A DNA stretch of 64,000 bases from Promethearchaeota archaeon (GCA_048940925.1 JBHLOC010000001.1:128001-192000), one strand, 5' to 3'. Numbered from the stretch's first letter, positions 40,976-49,459 are shown. Program-made: numbers and translations. The notes: generated by a model from the sequence alone, not told the origin.

Positions 40976-41283
40976 TTTTGATAGCCTCCTTAACTTTAAA
41001 TTTTCAACTAATTCTTTTATTTATATTATTTTTTAGTTTTTTTGATATACTTAATTATCTTGTAGTAATAAATACTGAAATAAATATTTTGTTTAAATAA
41101 ATTAAAAAAATAAAAAAAATCAAGTATAAGATATCATTTTGCTAAGAATCTTCTCAAAATTGAGATTTTATTGATGTTTTCCACCGAGTTTTCAAATGAT
41201 GTGTTAATAAGAGTCATCAAATTTTGAATAGAATAAATATTTAAATTTAAAAAAATAGATATCAAAAAATAAAAAATACCTTA

Positions 41284-41303
41284 TAATGTCCCGAGAGACA
41301 TTA
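41284..41303 (-). terminator. Hairpin plus U-tract after micropeptide copy 1
   Basis: TAATGTCTC-TC-GGGACATTA on the minus strand, followed by T runs. Confidence 0.6.
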
Positions 41304-41309
41304 AATACT

Positions 41310-41342
41310 TTATGGCTTTGGACCAGTATCTCCCTTCCACAT
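41310..41342 (-). CDS. Putative 10-aa micropeptide MWKGDTGPKP (copy 1)
   Basis: Paralogous to 45137..45169 with synonymous and conservative changes; TTATATAA 25 nt upstream of ATG; hairpin 6 nt after the stop. Confidence 0.6.
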   Translation of the reverse strand: MWKGDTGPKP

Positions 41343-41443
41343 ATTATTATTTTTTTATTTATGTATTTATATAACACCAAAAATTAGTTGAATTTTTATA
41401 GAATAACATATTGTTTAACAAAATAAGATAAAAATCAATCAAA

Positions 41444-42250
41444 TTGTCTATTCTCTCTCATTACCTATTCCGATTATTTTGGGTGCTTTCGAGATATAAG
41501 TCCTATTTTGAGAACTTATTTAGAGTGCTTCCATTCTTCACTTCACGACCTACTTACCGTTCAATGAAAATGTTTGCAGATGCAATAGAAGATTATTATT
41601 CATATAACTTAAAAAGTTCATTTGTATTTTATAAACATTGTTTACAGAAGAAATATAATGGAATAAAAATAATATATGATTTAGGAATTTATTTTAGAAG
41701 CTGGGATAAACTCGATCGATTAGAGAAAAAAATCATCAATTTATCATATGGAAATATTCTGGATATAGGATCATGCACGGGGTATTATATTCCCTATTTG
41801 ATGAATAAAGGACCAACAACAGGAATAGAACTCTCATCTAAAATTAACAATATAGCGCGAAAAAAAGGTCTTGATAATTGTATTTCAGGTGATTTTTTAA
41901 AATATAAGTTCAATAAGACATTCGACACAATTACTCTCTTTGGAAACGATATTGCGCTTTCAGGTTCCTTATTTAACTTAAAAAAAATATTGAAGAAATT
42001 CAAAAAGTTACTTAACCATGACGGTCAAGTATTATTAATCATAAGCCATATTCGAACATTAAAATATTGGCATGTTATATTTACCCCTAAGTATGAGGGT
42101 CATTTTGGAATTCCTTTTAAATTACTTTTCTTTAATACCCACTTTTTTAATAAATTTGCTGCTAAATACGGTTTTTATTCCAGCATTCTTGGAAAAAGTG
42201 AAATGCTCGGAGACCTTTCATATTTAGTTAGATTAGTTAAATTATCATAA
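41444..42250 (+). CDS. Class I SAM-dependent methyltransferase
   Basis: ILDIGSCTG, GIELS, GDF, FDTITL. Confidence 0.85.
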   Translation: MSILSHYLFRLFWVLSRYKSYFENLFRVLPFFTSRPTYRSMKMFADAIEDYYSYNLKSSFVFYKHCLQKKYNGIKIIYDLGIYFRSWDKLDRLEKKIINLSYGNILDIGSCTGYYIPYLMNKGPTTGIELSSKINNIARKKGLDNCISGDFLKYKFNKTFDTITLFGNDIALSGSLFNLKKILKKFKKLLNHDGQVLLIISHIRTLKYWHVIFTPKYEGHFGIPFKLLFFNTHFFNKFAAKYGFYSSILGKSEMLGDLSYLVRLVKLS

Positions 42251-42303
42251 AATTTTAAATGGAACCATTTTATTTATACAAATTGATTTTAATCTAAACT
42301 TAA

Positions 42304-42675
42304 CTAAGACCATGCTACTTTATTGATAAAAATCGACCATTCTAATAAAATCATACCTTCATCGCTAGTATGAGCAATAAGATAATTTCCATTTTTCGTA
42401 ATAGACCCAACGATATTTCCCTTTCCGCCAGTAATATTTTTAGCTGCTAATTGGATTTCATCATTTTTTAAAATAGCAAATCGATAATTCTGAAACATAA
42501 GAGATGATTCTTTTGTTTTCCATGCACTTAATATGGCTTTAGCTTCTTCATTTGATAAAGGAAATTCACCAGATTTAAAAATAATATCTCCTTCTTTATT
42601 TAAAAGAAAAACTTCCTCAACCCCTTCTTGTCTTTTAAGTGAATCGACAAGACTATCAAATCTTTGTTCTTCTAT
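42304..42675 (-). CDS. Profilin-like protein (123 aa, apparent ATA start; ORF track shows only the last 64 aa)
   Basis: Open frame IEEQRFDSLVDSL...VFLLNKEGDIIFKSGEFPLSNEEAKAILSAW...LMFQNYRFAILKND...KNITGGKGNIVG...YLIAH; GGTGAT SD 5 nt upstream. Confidence 0.7.
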   Translation of the reverse strand: MEEQRFDSLVDSLKRQEGVEEVFLLNKEGDIIFKSGEFPLSNEEAKAILSAWKTKESSLMFQNYRFAILKNDEIQLAAKNITGGKGNIVGSITKNGNYLIAHTSDEGMILLEWSIFINKVAWS

Positions 42676-42850
42676 AATTTATCACCTTACATAAAAAAAC
42701 TGCTTTTAGGTTTATTGAAAGATAAAAATTTTGTAATTTAAATCTTTTTACACTTTAAATTGATTTTGATTAAAATTGAGAAAAATTTTTTACATTATAG
42801 GGATTATGATAATTACATTTTAATTGTTTTTAGCTCATCTTGATCTTCTG

Positions 42851-43645
42851 ATGGTAGAAAAGCTAATATTGTTTGATAAGATTTATAATATATCGAATAA
42901 AGGAAGGAAAGAAGATATTTATTTAAGATATCTTAAATACTTGAAAGAACATGTTAAGGGCTTTTCAGATACTTCAATTAATATTAAAAAATTAAGAAAG
43001 TTTGACAAAAGATTTGAAGTGAGCATTAGTGGTCCGGAAGAGCGTTTTATTTTTAACCTATTAAAAAAAGAGATAGGATCTATCCATGAATTCAAAGATA
43101 TTAAAGTGGGGAAGGAATTCAAAGGATCACTTGTAGATGTGGGAAAAGTTGGATTTGGTCTATTCGTCGATTGTGCTATTCTTAATCCACGTGCTGATGT
43201 GCTTATAAATCTACACACTTTACGCTCCCAATTGTGTGGTGGAAGAGAAAGATCTCTAAAAGAAATCATTGAAGCATATGATTTCATTGATCATTTTCCA
43301 GTATTGGTTAAAATTACTGAGATAGATATTGTAAAAAATAAATTATTAGGAGAATTAGCACCACATACTATAAACTTCTTTCAAAAAATTGTGGAAGAAA
43401 ATATCGAGGGTGTGTTTTTAAGCGGAGAAACTAAAGGACAGTTCAAAAAAGTAATCAATAAAAAAGGACATTTCCGAGATATTATTACTTTTAAACGTTT
43501 TGGTTTTTTAGAAAATTTTGTTTTATTAAAAGAGGGATCTGATGCTCCTGGAATCATTTCTCATATTGGCAATGAACTGGAGAATTGTAAATTAAGCGCT
43601 ATACGTCCTGGAAAAATACGAAGATTAGGTATGAGGATGGAGTAA
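42851..43645 (+). CDS. DUF2110-like conserved archaeal protein
   Basis: LVDVGKVGFGLFVD, GFLE..V.LKEGSDAPGII. Confidence 0.75.
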   Translation: MVEKLILFDKIYNISNKGRKEDIYLRYLKYLKEHVKGFSDTSINIKKLRKFDKRFEVSISGPEERFIFNLLKKEIGSIHEFKDIKVGKEFKGSLVDVGKVGFGLFVDCAILNPRADVLINLHTLRSQLCGGRERSLKEIIEAYDFIDHFPVLVKITEIDIVKNKLLGELAPHTINFFQKIVEENIEGVFLSGETKGQFKKVINKKGHFRDIITFKRFGFLENFVLLKEGSDAPGIISHIGNELENCKLSAIRPGKIRRLGMRME

Positions 43646-43695
43646 ATAATGAATTTTTAAAAAAACTCTAAAAGAAACCAACATTCAAGGAAAAT

Positions 43696-43797
43696 CGGGC
43701 TATGAGGGATTTGAACCCCCGACCTGCCGGTATCCGCTACGAATTTTGTAATAGTCGCTTAAGAGCCGGTTGCGCTACCTGCCTGCGCCAATAGCCC
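43696..43797 (-). tRNA. tRNA-Lys(CTT) with 28-nt intron at 37/38 (43732..43759)
   Basis: Acceptor GGGCTAT/ATAGCCC, T-loop GGTTCAAATCC, anticodon loop CT-CTT-A^A. Confidence 0.9.
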
Positions 43798-43835
43798 TTT
43801 CATATAAATTTATAAAATTGTCAATATATACTTAG

Positions 43836-43945
43836 CGCAGACGGAGGGACTCGAACCCCCGAGCGCTTATGCGCACCGGCTCTCAATGTTATGATCTTCA
43901 TTATAGCACTCAAGGCCGGCGTCTTACCAACTAGGCTACGTCTGC
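43836..43945 (-). tRNA. tRNA-Ser(TGA) with 27-nt anticodon-loop intron (about 43882..43908)
   Basis: Acceptor GCAGACG/CGTCTGC, G73, long variable arm, CCGGC/GCCGG stem; exact junction ambiguous because TTGAG is repeated. Confidence 0.85.
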
Positions 43946-44133
43946 ACAATATATTTGATTTTAAGATTCTTAGCTATTAATTTAGATTATATTAAATATA
44001 ATAAATTTTTTTTTATTCTAAATTTGTTCATAGGGAATAAATTATATCTTTTGAAAGCTAGATTTTATAATAAAATATTAAAATTTTGAAATGTTATATT
44101 GAAATTGTACAATATCAAAAATTTGTCAAACAT

Positions 44134-44216
44134 GCAATCGTCGCTTAGCCTGGTAGAGCGCCGGTCTGCTAAACCGGTGTCCAACGGATTCGTGGGTTCA
44201 AATCCCACCGATTGCG
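44134..44216 (+). tRNA. tRNA-Ser(GCT), no intron
   Basis: GCAATCG/CGATTGC, CCGGT-CTGCTAA-ACCGG, long variable arm. Confidence 0.93.
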
Positions 44217-44225
44217 TTTAGCTAT

Positions 44226-44331
44226 GGGCCAGTGGTCTAGTGGTTATGACGTCTCGCTTACACCGAGAAGGTCGGGAGTTCAATAGGAAAAAATATCTCA
44301 TCTTTTCTTGGAAACCTCTCCTGGCCCACCA
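44226..44331 (+). tRNA. tRNA-Val(TAC) with 30-nt non-canonical T-loop intron at 59/60 (44285..44314); CCA encoded
   Basis: TCTCG-CTTACAC-CGAGA anticodon arm; BHB with UUCA/UGGA helix and AU^A, AA^C bulges. Confidence 0.92.
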
Positions 44332-44495
44332 TTTTATCATTCCCGATATCAATATGGAAAGAAGAAGATAATAATAACAGATTAATAGATTCAGACGTCT
44401 ACAGAAACATATTATTCTCTTACTTTATTGATTTTAATATAATTTCCTATATGATTTTCTTACTAAAATAGGTAAAATATAAATTTTATACTACA

Positions 44496-44993
44496 TTGTC
44501 CTATAATAATATGAGTGGGGTAAAAGATTTCCGTTACTTGATTCCTGAGAGTTTATTTAAGGAAATCACACAAAAAGCTGCAGAAGAATATCCTAATATA
44601 ATTCATGGATGGCTTTTTGCTGATCGTAAGGAGAATTTCGGCATATGTACACAATTTATAATGAATCCAGATTTAAGAAAAACGAAAGTTCATGTAAAGC
44701 CGCGGAGTTGGATGAGATATAAAAAATCGAAAATCTATAATATGCGAAAGTTTAAACAGGAGCTAGGAGTCGACATTGTATGGCAATGGCACTCTCATCC
44801 AACAGGTCAAGAGAAACTTCACGCTATTGACAAGAGAATATTGAAATATTTGTCCAACGGTGTGATGATAATTGTTGTGCCCCCTGTAGAAGAGAAAGAT
44901 CAAAAAGCGCATCTCGTAGGCTGGTATTACGACAAACGGTATACTAAAAAGCCAATCATAGAAAAAATGGTTTTTGAAATAATCTCCGAATAA
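44496..44993 (+). CDS. JAB/MPN (JAMM) domain protein
   Basis: WHSHP-x9-D (HxH-x10-D spacing). Confidence 0.8.
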   Translation: MSYNNMSGVKDFRYLIPESLFKEITQKAAEEYPNIIHGWLFADRKENFGICTQFIMNPDLRKTKVHVKPRSWMRYKKSKIYNMRKFKQELGVDIVWQWHSHPTGQEKLHAIDKRILKYLSNGVMIIVVPPVEEKDQKAHLVGWYYDKRYTKKPIIEKMVFEIISE

Positions 44994-45110
44994 AATAGGT
45001 TCTCTAATTGAAAAATATTTTTTACTTTTATTCTGTTGATGTTTGAGTAATTTCTTATTGAATTATTAATGTTTATTCCAGTTTATTTTAAAAAAAATAA
45101 AATAGGATGC

Positions 45111-45130
45111 TAATGTCTCAAGAGACATTA
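45111..45130 (-). terminator. Hairpin plus U-tract after micropeptide copy 2
   Basis: Perfect TAATGTCTC-aa-GAGACATTA inverted repeat. Confidence 0.6.
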
Positions 45131-45136
45131 TATGAC

Positions 45137-45169
45137 TTATGGTATAGGTCCTCTATCTCCACGAAACAT
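45137..45169 (-). CDS. Putative 10-aa micropeptide MFRGDRGPIP (copy 2)
   Basis: Same length, motif, stop-hairpin spacing and upstream element as 41310..41342. Confidence 0.6.
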   Translation of the reverse strand: MFRGDRGPIP

Positions 45170-45309
45170 AATATATTTTTTTTTCTAATATATTTGTTTA
45201 GCACTAAAAAATTTGATTGAATTTTTAAGCAATTTTATATTGATACACTAAAGAAGATAAAAATAGATAATGTTGTGGTTTATTCTCAAACCACATATTC
45301 CTTATAAAA

Positions 45310-46203
45310 TTAGTTTAAATATTGAAATACAATTTCGAAATCTGAAAAGTCAAATGGTTTTAAGATAAACCCATCTGCTTTAATTTCGACCATTTTCTTT
45401 TCAACTTCGGAACTAGGAATAGCAGTCAATAAATACACAGGTATGGATTTATATGATTTATGATCTTTTATCAATTTGCAGATCTCATAACCAGAAATAT
45501 CTGGAAGAATGATATCCAGTAAGATTAATTTTGGTAATCCACCACGTAATTCTTCTATTCCTTTTGTGCCACTAACTACACCTTTACACTTATAACCTTT
45601 ACTCTCGAAATAGCTTGTAAGCAATTTAATGGTCGCAAGGTCATCTTCAATGAGGAGAATATCGTATTGAGATTCAGTTTCTTCCACTTTAATGTTGTCC
45701 AAAATATTGATAATTTTACTTTCAAGAAGTAAACTTTGGTCAAAGATGTTTTTTATTGTGGATAGTACTTCCTCATCTAAGTCGTCCTTATAATTTTCTA
45801 AAAGAAGTTGGCTAAAGCCTTTAATAGTTGTTAGTGGTTCTTTTAGCGCATGAGAAATAGTTGAGATGGTTTTTTCATCAATTCTACTTAAACCTCCTCC
45901 CAATATATTAGATTTTTGTTCTATGTAATAATCAACACTGTCTCTAATCAATGCAGAGATTGTAGAATAATCATGGGTTTCTTTAAATTTTTGCCATTCA
46001 GATTTGGTTTCGTCTGATACATAGAGAGATATACGCTCTTTATCTCGGTCATAAATTTTTTCACCCTTTAACCATTTTTTAAATCCTTCAGTAATGGTAC
46101 CACGCCATATAGCATATTTGTCAGTCTGTTCCTCGTATTCTTTCATTAAGTTTTTTGCTTTTTTACTTTCCAAATCTAAATTAGCTATTTCCTCATCTGT
46201 CAT
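45310..46203 (-). CDS. Response regulator: RHH-like + HisKA-like + receiver (paralog 1; frame open upstream to ATA 46302)
   Basis: RISLYVSDETK..W....ISALIRDSV; ISHALKEPLTTIKG; LLIEDD, LLDIILPD, KPF. Confidence 0.85.
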   Translation of the reverse strand: MTDEEIANLDLESKKAKNLMKEYEEQTDKYAIWRGTITEGFKKWLKGEKIYDRDKERISLYVSDETKSEWQKFKETHDYSTISALIRDSVDYYIEQKSNILGGGLSRIDEKTISTISHALKEPLTTIKGFSQLLLENYKDDLDEEVLSTIKNIFDQSLLLESKIINILDNIKVEETESQYDILLIEDDLATIKLLTSYFESKGYKCKGVVSGTKGIEELRGGLPKLILLDIILPDISGYEICKLIKDHKSYKSIPVYLLTAIPSSEVEKKMVEIKADGFILKPFDFSDFEIVFQYLN

Positions 46204-46568: not shown

Positions 46569-47495
46569 TTAATTCTTCTCACTTTTTAAAATATCAAAAA
46601 TAACTTCAAAATCAGAAAAATTAAAAGGTTTTAGAATATACCCATTAGCTTTTGTTTCTTCAAGGTTTTTTTCAACTTCAGAACCTGCTATAGCAGTTAA
46701 GAAGTACACAGGAATATTCGACCATTCTTTATCTGATTTTATAGTTTTACAAATATCATAACCACTTAAATCAGGCAAAATTATATCTAATAATATTAAT
46801 TTAGGAATAGCATGGCCTAATTCTTCTAAACCTTTAGATCCGCTAACAATACCCTTACATTTATAGCCTTTACTGTCAAAGTAACTCGTGATTAAGCGAA
46901 TTGTTGCTAGATCATCCTCAACCAATAACACATCATATTCAGACTCTACCTTAATATTATCTAGGATATTGATTATTTTTGTCTCAAGAAGAACACTTTG
47001 TTCGAAAATATTTTTTACGGTGTCTAATATGTGATCATTCAATTTTTCTTTGTAATTTTCAAGAAGTAATTGTGAATATCCTTTTATTGAAGTTAATGGT
47101 TCTTTTAAAGTATGAGAAATATTAGAAATCGTCTGTTTATTTAATTCCTTCAGAGTGTAATTATTTTCCATTGATTTACTTTGGATGAAGGCTTCCACTG
47201 ATTGCCTTATTAATTTAGAAATCGTCAAAGAACCATTATTTTTAGTAAAATTTAGCCATTTAGTTTTAGTATCTTCAGAAACATATAAAGAGATTCGTTC
47301 TTTGTCTCGATGGTATATTTTCTCTCCTTTTTGCCATTTTTTATAACCTTCTGTCACTACGCCTCGCCATACTGAATATCTTCCGGTTTCTTTTTCATAT
47401 TTTTTCATTTCTTCAGATTTTTCAATGGAACTATTATCAATTTTGATTAGTTCTTTATCATCTGAGTCTTCTTCGCTATCCTTTGATTTTTCCAC
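46569..47495 (-). CDS. Response regulator: RHH-like + HisKA-like + receiver (paralog 2)
   Basis: Same architecture: RISLYVSED, ISHTLKEPL, LVEDD, LLDIILPD, KPF. Confidence 0.85.
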   Translation of the reverse strand: MEKSKDSEEDSDDKELIKIDNSSIEKSEEMKKYEKETGRYSVWRGVVTEGYKKWQKGEKIYHRDKERISLYVSEDTKTKWLNFTKNNGSLTISKLIRQSVEAFIQSKSMENNYTLKELNKQTISNISHTLKEPLTSIKGYSQLLLENYKEKLNDHILDTVKNIFEQSVLLETKIINILDNIKVESEYDVLLVEDDLATIRLITSYFDSKGYKCKGIVSGSKGLEELGHAIPKLILLDIILPDLSGYDICKTIKSDKEWSNIPVYFLTAIAGSEVEKNLEETKANGYILKPFNFSDFEVIFDILKSEKN

Positions 47496-49027: not shown

Positions 49028-49459
49028 GTTTTTTTTCTTTTCCTTTTTTTTTTAAACAAGGTAAAAGGTGGGGGAGACAAATCTCTTAAATTCTATTTCG
49101 AATTATTAATTAAACCCATTAAAAATCTAGAATTCGATAAAAATTCAATTTTTTTGTGGATTATAAATATATACATTCAAAATATTTAATATGTTGCGTG
49201 GAGAACCACCTATACCTTAAATTATGGAATGTTTCTAAAGATATTACAGATTATTTTATTTTTTTGATTAAACTAAACCTTTTTTTTAAATTAATAGATT
49301 TTTATCTAATTGAAAAAATTATTCTTGGTTTCTGCAATAAATGAAAAATTTCCTATTTAAAACTTACTTTTGAAGCAAAATTATGATTTTTTTTGTTTAC
49401 TGTCTTTAAGATAATGCCTTTTATTTATTGAGAATAAGAAAATTTATAATAGGCAATTT

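Follow-up and report, generated by a model that had tools for sequence, protein, structure and literature searches.

Probable micropeptide genes and a partner methyltransferase in a Lokiarchaeial genome point to an undescribed peptide family with a giant companion protein

Two diverged repeats in a 64,000-nucleotide stretch of a Promethearchaeota archaeon genome (GCA_048940925.1, JBHLOC010000001.1:128001-192000; hereafter the window) each carry, on the minus strand, an open reading frame (ORF) of only 10 codons, which raises the question of whether these are genes for micropeptides and what such peptides could do. The host is of the Loki type among Asgard archaea, homologues of a linked protein bearing the names Lokiarchaeota or Promethearchaeota. 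A preliminary description had proposed an unannotated small-peptide family with leaderless mini-transcripts, and comparison with related genomes supports this proposal. The two repeats are very probably genuine genes encoding 10-amino-acid peptides, the translation of their ORFs is very likely on comparative grounds, and the interpretation of each repeat as a free-standing leaderless mini-gene for a peptide of 9-10 residues is strongly supported. The micropeptide family, with its dedicated methyltransferase, is real and undescribed.

Both 10-codon ORFs translate as originally given, and the synonymous and conservative codon changes between copies 1 and 2 were found as stated (Table 1). The codon pattern matched twice in the window and not once in 100 shuffles, and in the whole 4.8-Mb genome of the window (G000) this pair gave the sole matches to the strict motif M-[WF]-[KR]-G-D-x-G-P-x-P. 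Both repeats are thus present as described, and a third copy, of nine codons and on the plus strand, had been overlooked; it has an upstream element in common with copies 1 and 2, plus a TATA box. Altogether, the genome contains six or seven family peptide genes, and the three copies of the window are satellites of a family-wide system.

The signals flanking the ORFs were largely borne out: the shared upstream element, the hairpins and the U-tracts are present at copies 1 and 2. Copy 1 has the TATA box attributed to it, and its distance from the ATG implies a leaderless mRNA; copy 2, as a correction, has no canonical TATA box. The box lies about 29 nt ahead of the ATG in copies 1 and 3. Read on the plus strand, the upstream element of copy 1 leads into TTTTATA, likely the TATA box of the divergent methyltransferase gene; the element is retained at the orphan copies 2 and 3 and may additionally be an operator. 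Downstream, a spacer of 6-7 nt separates the ORF from a 20-nt hairpin at copies 1 and 2, that of copy 1 being a probable terminator or stabiliser, while copy 3 is followed by a weak hairpin and a U-tract. Most relatives also have a hairpin and U-tract after the ORF, differing in sequence from those of the window. By themselves the hairpins show no unusual stability (z -1.2 and -1.7); since the 3' hairpins do not align, RNAalifold gave no consensus structure, and no covariation count is claimed. An Rfam scan covering copies 1 and 2 gave no match over them at E up to 5. At copy 2 (45086-45169, minus strand) the beginning of the ORF is predicted to pair with an arm of the 3' hairpin as an alternative to the terminator hairpin, which recalls ribosome-controlled termination at mccA; the fold of copy 1 has no such pairing. 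An inverted repeat at 45270-45300, just past a response-regulator-like gene, sets that gene apart from copy 2 and is probably its terminator.

Table 1. Features of the three micropeptide copies and of the partner methyltransferase gene, in window coordinates.
Feature	Position	Strand	Remarks
Copy 1, 10-codon peptide ORF, Met-Trp-Lys-Gly ... Pro-stop	41310..41342	-	G082 ortholog at the same site
Copy 1 TATA box TATATAAA	41366..41373	-	-31..-24 from the ATG (23 nt before it)
Copy 1 shared upstream element	41374..41401	strand-neutral	aligned across 10 copies
Copy 1 3' hairpin	41284..41303	-	then U-tracts (about 41255-41277)
Class I S-adenosylmethionine (SAM)-dependent methyltransferase, 268 aa	41444..42250	+	TTG start; PF13649 and PF08241
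Copy 2, 10-codon peptide ORF, Met-Phe-Arg-Gly ... Pro-stop	45137..45169	-	orphan; TATA box degenerate
Copy 2 shared upstream element	45190..45226	strand-neutral	no gene behind
Copy 2 3' hairpin	45111..45130	-	then U-tracts (about 45085-45103)
Copy 3, 9-codon peptide ORF, Met-Leu-Arg-Gly ... Pro-stop	49191..49220	+	flanked by TFB and uL2 genes
Copy 3 shared upstream element and TATA box	49139..49167	+	TATA box at -29

How far does the family extend, and is its coding capacity under selection? Relatives were fetched via the neighbouring methyltransferase, the peptide itself being unused in the search. An ORF of the same type adjoins every close methyltransferase homologue with an intact flank, and homologues that had lost ATG, stop or frame were seen at none of the loci examined. 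The strict motif matched in one other genome (G091) of 153, and in one more of 399 when one mismatch was allowed; the motif is therefore too narrow. The family comprises about 95 distinct peptides of 8-12 residues, Gly/Pro-rich, mostly Pro-ending and found in one Lokiarchaeia family; a rough census of distinct short peptides gave 98, including a few that probably arose by chance. Only the Gly/Pro pattern and the final Pro are conserved family-wide; the Asp and the RGD and GDxGP motifs are not. The initial caution that the RGD/KGD and collagen-like GDxGP motifs might be coincidental was well placed, as Asp is missing from many orthologues at the same locus; the RGD and collagen readings were rejected on this ground.

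Two subclasses carry the coding evidence. The Arg/Lys/His-Gly subclass (22 distinct copies, from a filter that included the final Pro and neither TATA spacing nor third-base variation) has ORFs of 9, 10 or 11 codons, that is, with whole-codon differences; the stop is TAA or TAG, and the third base of the last Pro codon varies. Starts vary between ATG and TTG across the two subclasses taken together. A TATA box starting at -25 to -31 is present in 20/22 copies, compared to a mean of 2.4 and a maximum of 9 in 2000 shuffles. The sister subclass, M-P-G-x-x-G-x-x-P, gave 51 matches in 22/154 genomes, and a single genome can hold as many as 11 copies; the pattern in reverse, as a control, matched once. 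Of the 51, 5 were chance matches antisense within a long gene and were dropped, as were many matches of another search that lay inside long genes. A coding test of this subclass was anchored on start-Pro-Gly and the downstream U-tract only (42 intergenic elements), and is only partly independent, many loci having originally been fetched by pattern. The stop follows exactly nine codons, at Pro, in 36/42 elements, and 10-11 codons in the remaining six; pN/pS (the nonsynonymous to synonymous ratio) over codons 4-9 is 0.71 in frame versus 1.17 and 1.12 in the other frames. A Shine-Dalgarno-like site lies 5-6 nt upstream in 25/42.

One Gly/Pro-rich core is common to three precursor designs: leaderless 8-12-mers; precursors of 35-45 aa in which a basic N-terminus and a hydrophobic stretch precede the C-terminal core, whose "signal-like" leaders were assigned by eye, without a predictor; and 46-aa precursors with three tandem Pro-x6-Pro cores, both examples of which contain Cys and stand beside YcaO. 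At another locus (L131, G099:C2), three identical genes for peptides ending in Gly-Gly lie beside a frameshifted ThiF, a B12-radical SAM protein and a major facilitator superfamily (MFS) transporter; the Gly-Gly terminus is a ubiquitin-like end facing an E1-like enzyme.

Which neighbours belong to the peptides? Close homologues of the window methyltransferase fall into a single clade (17 rows, of which two are identical; support 100), separate from the ordinary 5bp9-like archaeal homologues, and a peptide ORF stands beside 16 of the 17: 15 directly and one at a distance of one gene, across ThiF; the 17th row starts at a contig edge. No family-type ORF was found beside distant methyltransferase homologues (0/26 loci). 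Metagenome contigs repeat the pairing, and one of them (L277) holds a second pair that was unused in finding the locus. These comparisons indicate that, of the neighbours initially named, the divergent methyltransferase is the true peptide partner, the JAB protein and the response regulators being incidental. The pair differs in site and orientation between genomes within a proteasome-tRNA-JAB region, and because it does so, the JAB, response-regulator-like and proteasome genes are regarded as backdrop. JAB, the response regulators, proteasome alpha and TFB were accordingly rejected as partners: they form a fixed chromosomal setting while the cassette moves. At the JAB-adjacent site, G053 and the metagenome loci L276 and L278 have peptide and methyltransferase; the window's genome has the peptide only (copy 2). 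In G082 an orphan peptide occupies the copy 1 site without a methyltransferase, and no close methyltransferase homologue was found in that genome; the peptide can therefore persist without the enzyme.

The window enzyme has an intact SAM-binding motif in the alignment and an amphipathic N-terminal extension of ~40 aa; its nearest PDB relative (5bp9, E 3e-28) is uncharacterised. Methyltransferase-linked peptides all lack Pro at position 2, where most others have it, and their first Gly is preceded by Arg, Lys, His or Asn, a composition suggestive of methylation at the N-terminus or on a side chain; that the enzyme modifies one of these is our guess. Aspartimide (PIMT-like) chemistry was rejected as a general role, since peptides without Asp keep the methyltransferase. 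A broken methyltransferase homologue lies downstream of an MFS relative at L262 (G053:C69), where no family peptide was flagged.

The deeper-branching members of the window methyltransferase clade are clustered with a 1200-aa giant protein, encoded outside the window, which is the constant family-wide partner of the peptides. One Lokiarchaeia family has it in 117/134 genomes, the remaining families of the class have none, and its C-terminal part has only 217 matching clusters in 1.84 billion representatives. A strict peptide match was found at 41/76 giant-protein loci (57 kb of flank), compared to 49 matches in 587 kb of intergenic DNA of the window's genome, 7 of which are family members; under looser rules, 58/75 loci have a peptide. 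Both giant-protein genes of the window's genome (C40:256227-259859 and C31:5126-8770) have window-type peptides beside them, with a second methyltransferase at one locus and ThiF at one. In the giant-protein tree, peptide types follow the clades, those of the window type accompanying the clade to which both of these copies belong. Between two peptide genes at L081 (8017-8230; G000:C40, about 260017-260230) lies a 70-codon truncated N-terminus of the giant protein, which is a trace of local duplication.

The giant protein has no Pfam match, and profile searches against PDB sequences returned nothing meaningful. A structural model built with a 76-sequence alignment was of high confidence (predicted local distance difference test, pLDDT, 89.6; predicted template modelling score, pTM, 0.91), versus pLDDT 33 for the single-sequence fold. 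In this model residues 3-140 match SprT/minigluzincin peptidases (Z 6-7). The zincin-like domain has R-E-x-Y in place of HExxH, and therefore the protein is probably not a zinc peptidase. For the remainder, NirDL is the best match (Z 12.5; Foldseek E 5e-4), followed by Lrp/AsnC regulators, whose whole chains including the helix-turn-helix (HTH) align at Z about 6; Atlas HTH leads stayed below 0.9. The predicted fold fits a ligand-binding DNA regulator. A complex prediction of residues 1-945 with the protein's three-core precursor scored 0.01 and was not used as evidence.

In contrast to the constant giant protein, ThiF, YcaO, B12-radical SAM, methyltransferase and GNAT enzymes come and go among loci, and many loci have no tailoring enzyme. 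A ThiF with a 110-aa N-terminal extension, matching MccB/PaaA at E about 1e-17, occurs in 16/161 genomes and at none of the window loci; at L084 the peptide gene is followed by hairpin, ThiF, methyltransferase and MFS in this order. Along with the peptides, a DUF885-like protein whose HExxxxHH...E motif is intact has multiplied in genus g12; it has no PDB match, and its score falls below the Pfam cut-off. In genus g2 the giant protein adjoins GNAT or a GNAT-ThiF fusion (L127, L128, L195), and no nearby peptide gene was found there. A recurring 275-aa family without Pfam or NCBIfam match (L163 18439-19269, L189 8193-9020, L123 7766-8605) adjoins MFS/giant-protein clusters and one DUF885-like gene, and is a possible further component of the system.

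What could the peptides be for? We put at roughly 0.5 the probability that they are an exported, optionally modified signal sensed by the giant protein. The peptide would be produced in quantity from a short, hairpin-ended, leaderless mRNA and would optionally be modified. In the window, methylation would be the work of the divergent methyltransferase, with the N-terminal amine or the Arg/Lys at position 2-3 as the most plausible sites, in cis for copy 1 and in trans for copies 2 and 3, whose own methyltransferase would have been lost or never present; copy 2 is perhaps weakly expressed. Leaderless forms would leave the cell via the MFS transporter and those with a signal-like leader via Sec, and the peptide would re-enter via oligopeptide ABC importers. 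In the cytoplasm the giant protein would bind it and change transcription of the peptide, enzyme and transporter genes, the whole amounting to quorum-type signalling with variable, strain-specific peptides. We propose more tentatively, at somewhat less than even odds, that this would be the first Asgard peptide-pheromone (quorum-type) system: a diversified code of Pro-ending octa- to decapeptides, swappable enzymes of the kind acting on peptides that ribosomes make and that are modified after translation (RiPPs), here a dedicated methyltransferase, two alternative export routes, and a receptor whose new architecture (a dead metallopeptidase fold joined to an Lrp oligomer in a single chain) has no relation to that of RRNPP or two-component receptors.

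Export of the product is hinted at chiefly by the split between MFS neighbours and signal-like leaders: an MFS gene lies within three genes of short forms at 30/42 loci versus 2/13 for signal-like forms, which occur at five or more places on the giant-protein tree. Several points weigh against signalling. The Fisher p value of the split (p = 7e-4) is overstated, given related genomes, clipped flanks and one wrong "signal" label (L134). The window copies have no adjoining MFS and lie at least 80 kb from the nearest giant-protein gene, the MFS relative in the same genome (C23, 35%) has no adjoining peptide, and about a quarter of giant-protein loci have no peptide. Re-import could draw on the 14 family-5 solute-binding matches of that genome, but peptide importers are expected in any peptide-fermenting archaeon, and these matches are unspecific. 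The fold is no proof of a DNA-binding receptor, because NirDL is an enzyme made of Lrp-like units, and sequence profiles of two giant-protein units recovered no Lrp from the PDB. Furthermore, the methyltransferase substrate is a putative one, proposed from linkage, and expression, translation, export and peptide binding are predictions.

Part of the same evidence could be read as a biosynthetic pathway, the main alternative, which we regard as less probable than signalling. The peptides would then be precursors in a new class of natural products that ribosomes make and enzymes modify (an antimicrobial, metal-binding or another effector), tailored by the methyltransferase, ThiF, YcaO and radical-SAM enzymes, exported by MFS, and processed or rendered harmless to the producer by GNAT and the DUF885-like metallopeptidase; the giant protein would be a pathway regulator or a class-defining maturase (an Lrp-fold enzyme like NirDL, e.g. 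a cyclase). Every variable partner is indeed a RiPP-type enzyme (ThiF, YcaO, B12-radical SAM, GNAT), YcaO stands beside the three-core, Cys-containing precursors, the order at L084 mirrors mccA-terminator-mccB-mccC (PMC4231749, PMC12596934), and tandem cores with up to 11 gene copies in a genome suggest bulk production. However, the giant protein alone is constant and many loci have no enzymes, those with signal-like leaders (e.g. L177, L180, L199) better matching a secreted signal, and the peptides do not have the C-terminal Asn required by MccB chemistry. This explanation also overlaps with the signal that we favour, since a modified pheromone would be both.

The peptides might instead stay in the cell or its membrane as regulatory subunits or reporters (of translation, Pro/Gly supply or proteolysis) that bind the giant protein or inhibit a neighbouring enzyme (the methyltransferase or the DUF885-like peptidase), which seems to us improbable. 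Lrp/AsnC-type domains sense intracellular amino acids and Pro-stop ends slow termination; these facts, the missing transporter beside the window copies and the co-expansion of the DUF885-like gene with the peptides in genus g12 would agree with an intracellular role. On the other hand, numerous copies, 2 and 3 among them, run towards convergent genes and are therefore not cis leaders, the alternation of MFS and leader would be purposeless without export, and one core type occurs with unrelated partner enzymes; for the enzyme-inhibitor function suggested in the preliminary description, nothing was found in support. Least probable by far is that the repeats are non-coding elements (a small RNA, a terminator/promoter module or a mobile-element end) with incidental ORFs. 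Promoter and hairpin are conserved among close copies, and the cassette sits at varied sites and orientations near the tRNA cluster in related genomes, as such elements might. Family-wide, however, the 3' hairpin is free to vary in sequence and length, in contrast to the conserved start, reading frame, terminal Pro and stop, the searches for a consensus RNA structure and for an Rfam match over copies 1 and 2 were negative, and the same core recurs behind signal-like leaders and in three-core polyproteins, so that this explanation is largely refuted.

Among known systems, the RRNPP cassettes of Bacillota (Rgg/SHP, leaderless LCP, PlcR/PapR, Rap/Phr, ComR/ComS) share with the Asgard family a tiny, usually unannotated peptide gene adjoining, and often divergent from, a cytoplasmic regulator-like gene, an arrangement seen here at the 41 strict and 58 loose loci and at both giant-protein genes of the window's genome. 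Common to both are also mature peptides of ~8 residues, which are either leaderless or form the C-terminal end of a hydrophobic precursor, and variable peptides that track the partner's tree; RiPP enzymes are linked to RRNPP cassettes too (PMC13361665). In contrast, the giant protein has no tetratricopeptide repeat array, its model showing a zincin-like domain and Lrp/AsnC-like alpha/beta units instead, the proposed export is by MFS or Sec and not PptAB, the cores are Gly/Pro-rich and Pro-ending, and the host is an archaeon. Like NirDL/AhbAB siroheme decarboxylase and the Lrp/AsnC regulators, the giant protein may, on its modelled fold, have tandem HTH-plus-RAM units in one chain; it differs from NirDL in its ~11% identity, its length and its extra zincin-like and helical domains.

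The RiPP hallmark of a precursor clustered with modifying enzymes is present (the methyltransferase in the window; ThiF, YcaO, B12-radical SAM and GNAT elsewhere). Microcin C clusters (mccA, MccB, MccC), including the MccB-methyltransferase fusions of Bacillus and Yersinia, have in common with some loci of the family a very short precursor, often starting Met-Arg, with a hairpin right after it, a ThiF with an N-terminal extension, a methyltransferase-fold gene, MFS and sometimes GNAT (PMC12596934, PMC4231749). A hairpin terminator directly follows mccA (PMC4231749), and a hairpin and U-tract stand behind most copies here. MccB chemistry requires a precursor with C-terminal Asn (PMC12596934), whereas the Asgard precursors end in Pro or Gly-Gly, also beside ThiF, and never in Asn; furthermore, the family can do without ThiF, and nothing in mcc clusters corresponds to the giant protein. 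Repeated cores ending in Cys-Pro beside YcaO recall azoline and multi-core RiPPs (cyanobactins, linear azoline-containing peptides), and in ThiF-cyclised RiPPs (GrcB, EnfB, IndF) ThiF can activate the C-terminal carboxylate for ring closure (PMC12596934). Unlike these, most Asgard precursors are leaderless, YcaO and ThiF are found at a minority of loci, and no PatA/PatG-type protease was seen in the loci. The window methyltransferase is of the same class I family as 5bp9, a Bacteroides putative methyltransferase. Two further classes were rejected: a leader-peptide attenuator or upstream ORF, as the genes faced by copies 2 and 3, and by most g12 copies, are convergent and the methyltransferase is divergent, and type I toxin peptides (Ibs, Ldr, Fst), which are hydrophobic membrane helices of 18-35 aa paired with an antisense RNA, the window peptides being polar, Gly/Pro-rich and 9-10 aa long.

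Other features were noted around the copies. Two paralogous response-regulator-like proteins (45310-46203 and 46569-47495, minus strand; about 71-74% DNA likeness over parts) have a HisKA-like helix pair and a receiver domain, and no kinase ATPase domain was matched in either. A 123-codon gene (42304-42675, minus strand), which may be profilin-like, begins with ATA after an AAGGTGA site, its ortholog in G091 starting with ATG. A tRNA-Val(UAC)-like gene (44226-44331, plus strand) carries, in its T-loop region, a ~31-nt insertion with a hairpin fold, probably a non-canonical intron; the gene was missed by ARAGORN and matched partially by Rfam, and G091 has an uninterrupted version (L002, about 366-439). 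Two longer-than-normal tRNA genes (43696-43797 and 43836-43945, minus strand), found by Rfam and not by ARAGORN, probably contain introns.

Our literature search, whose coverage was incomplete, found no account of such peptide signalling, or of comparable natural products from short peptides, for Asgard archaea, and a survey of archaeal RiPPs mentions Asgard in passing, naming neither Lokiarchaeia nor ThiF (PMC12144867). The logic of a peptide signal or RiPP is known in kind; the fold of the partner is new. Annotation misses peptide genes as short as these, yet most genomes of a major Lokiarchaeia family contain the giant protein that is their partner. If the peptides are natural-product precursors, they would represent a new RiPP class and offer candidate ThiF/YcaO/radical-SAM/methyltransferase chemistry on Pro-ending cores. 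If they are signals, they would show that a lineage near the eukaryotes communicates socially, and could possibly aid the culturing of these slow growers.

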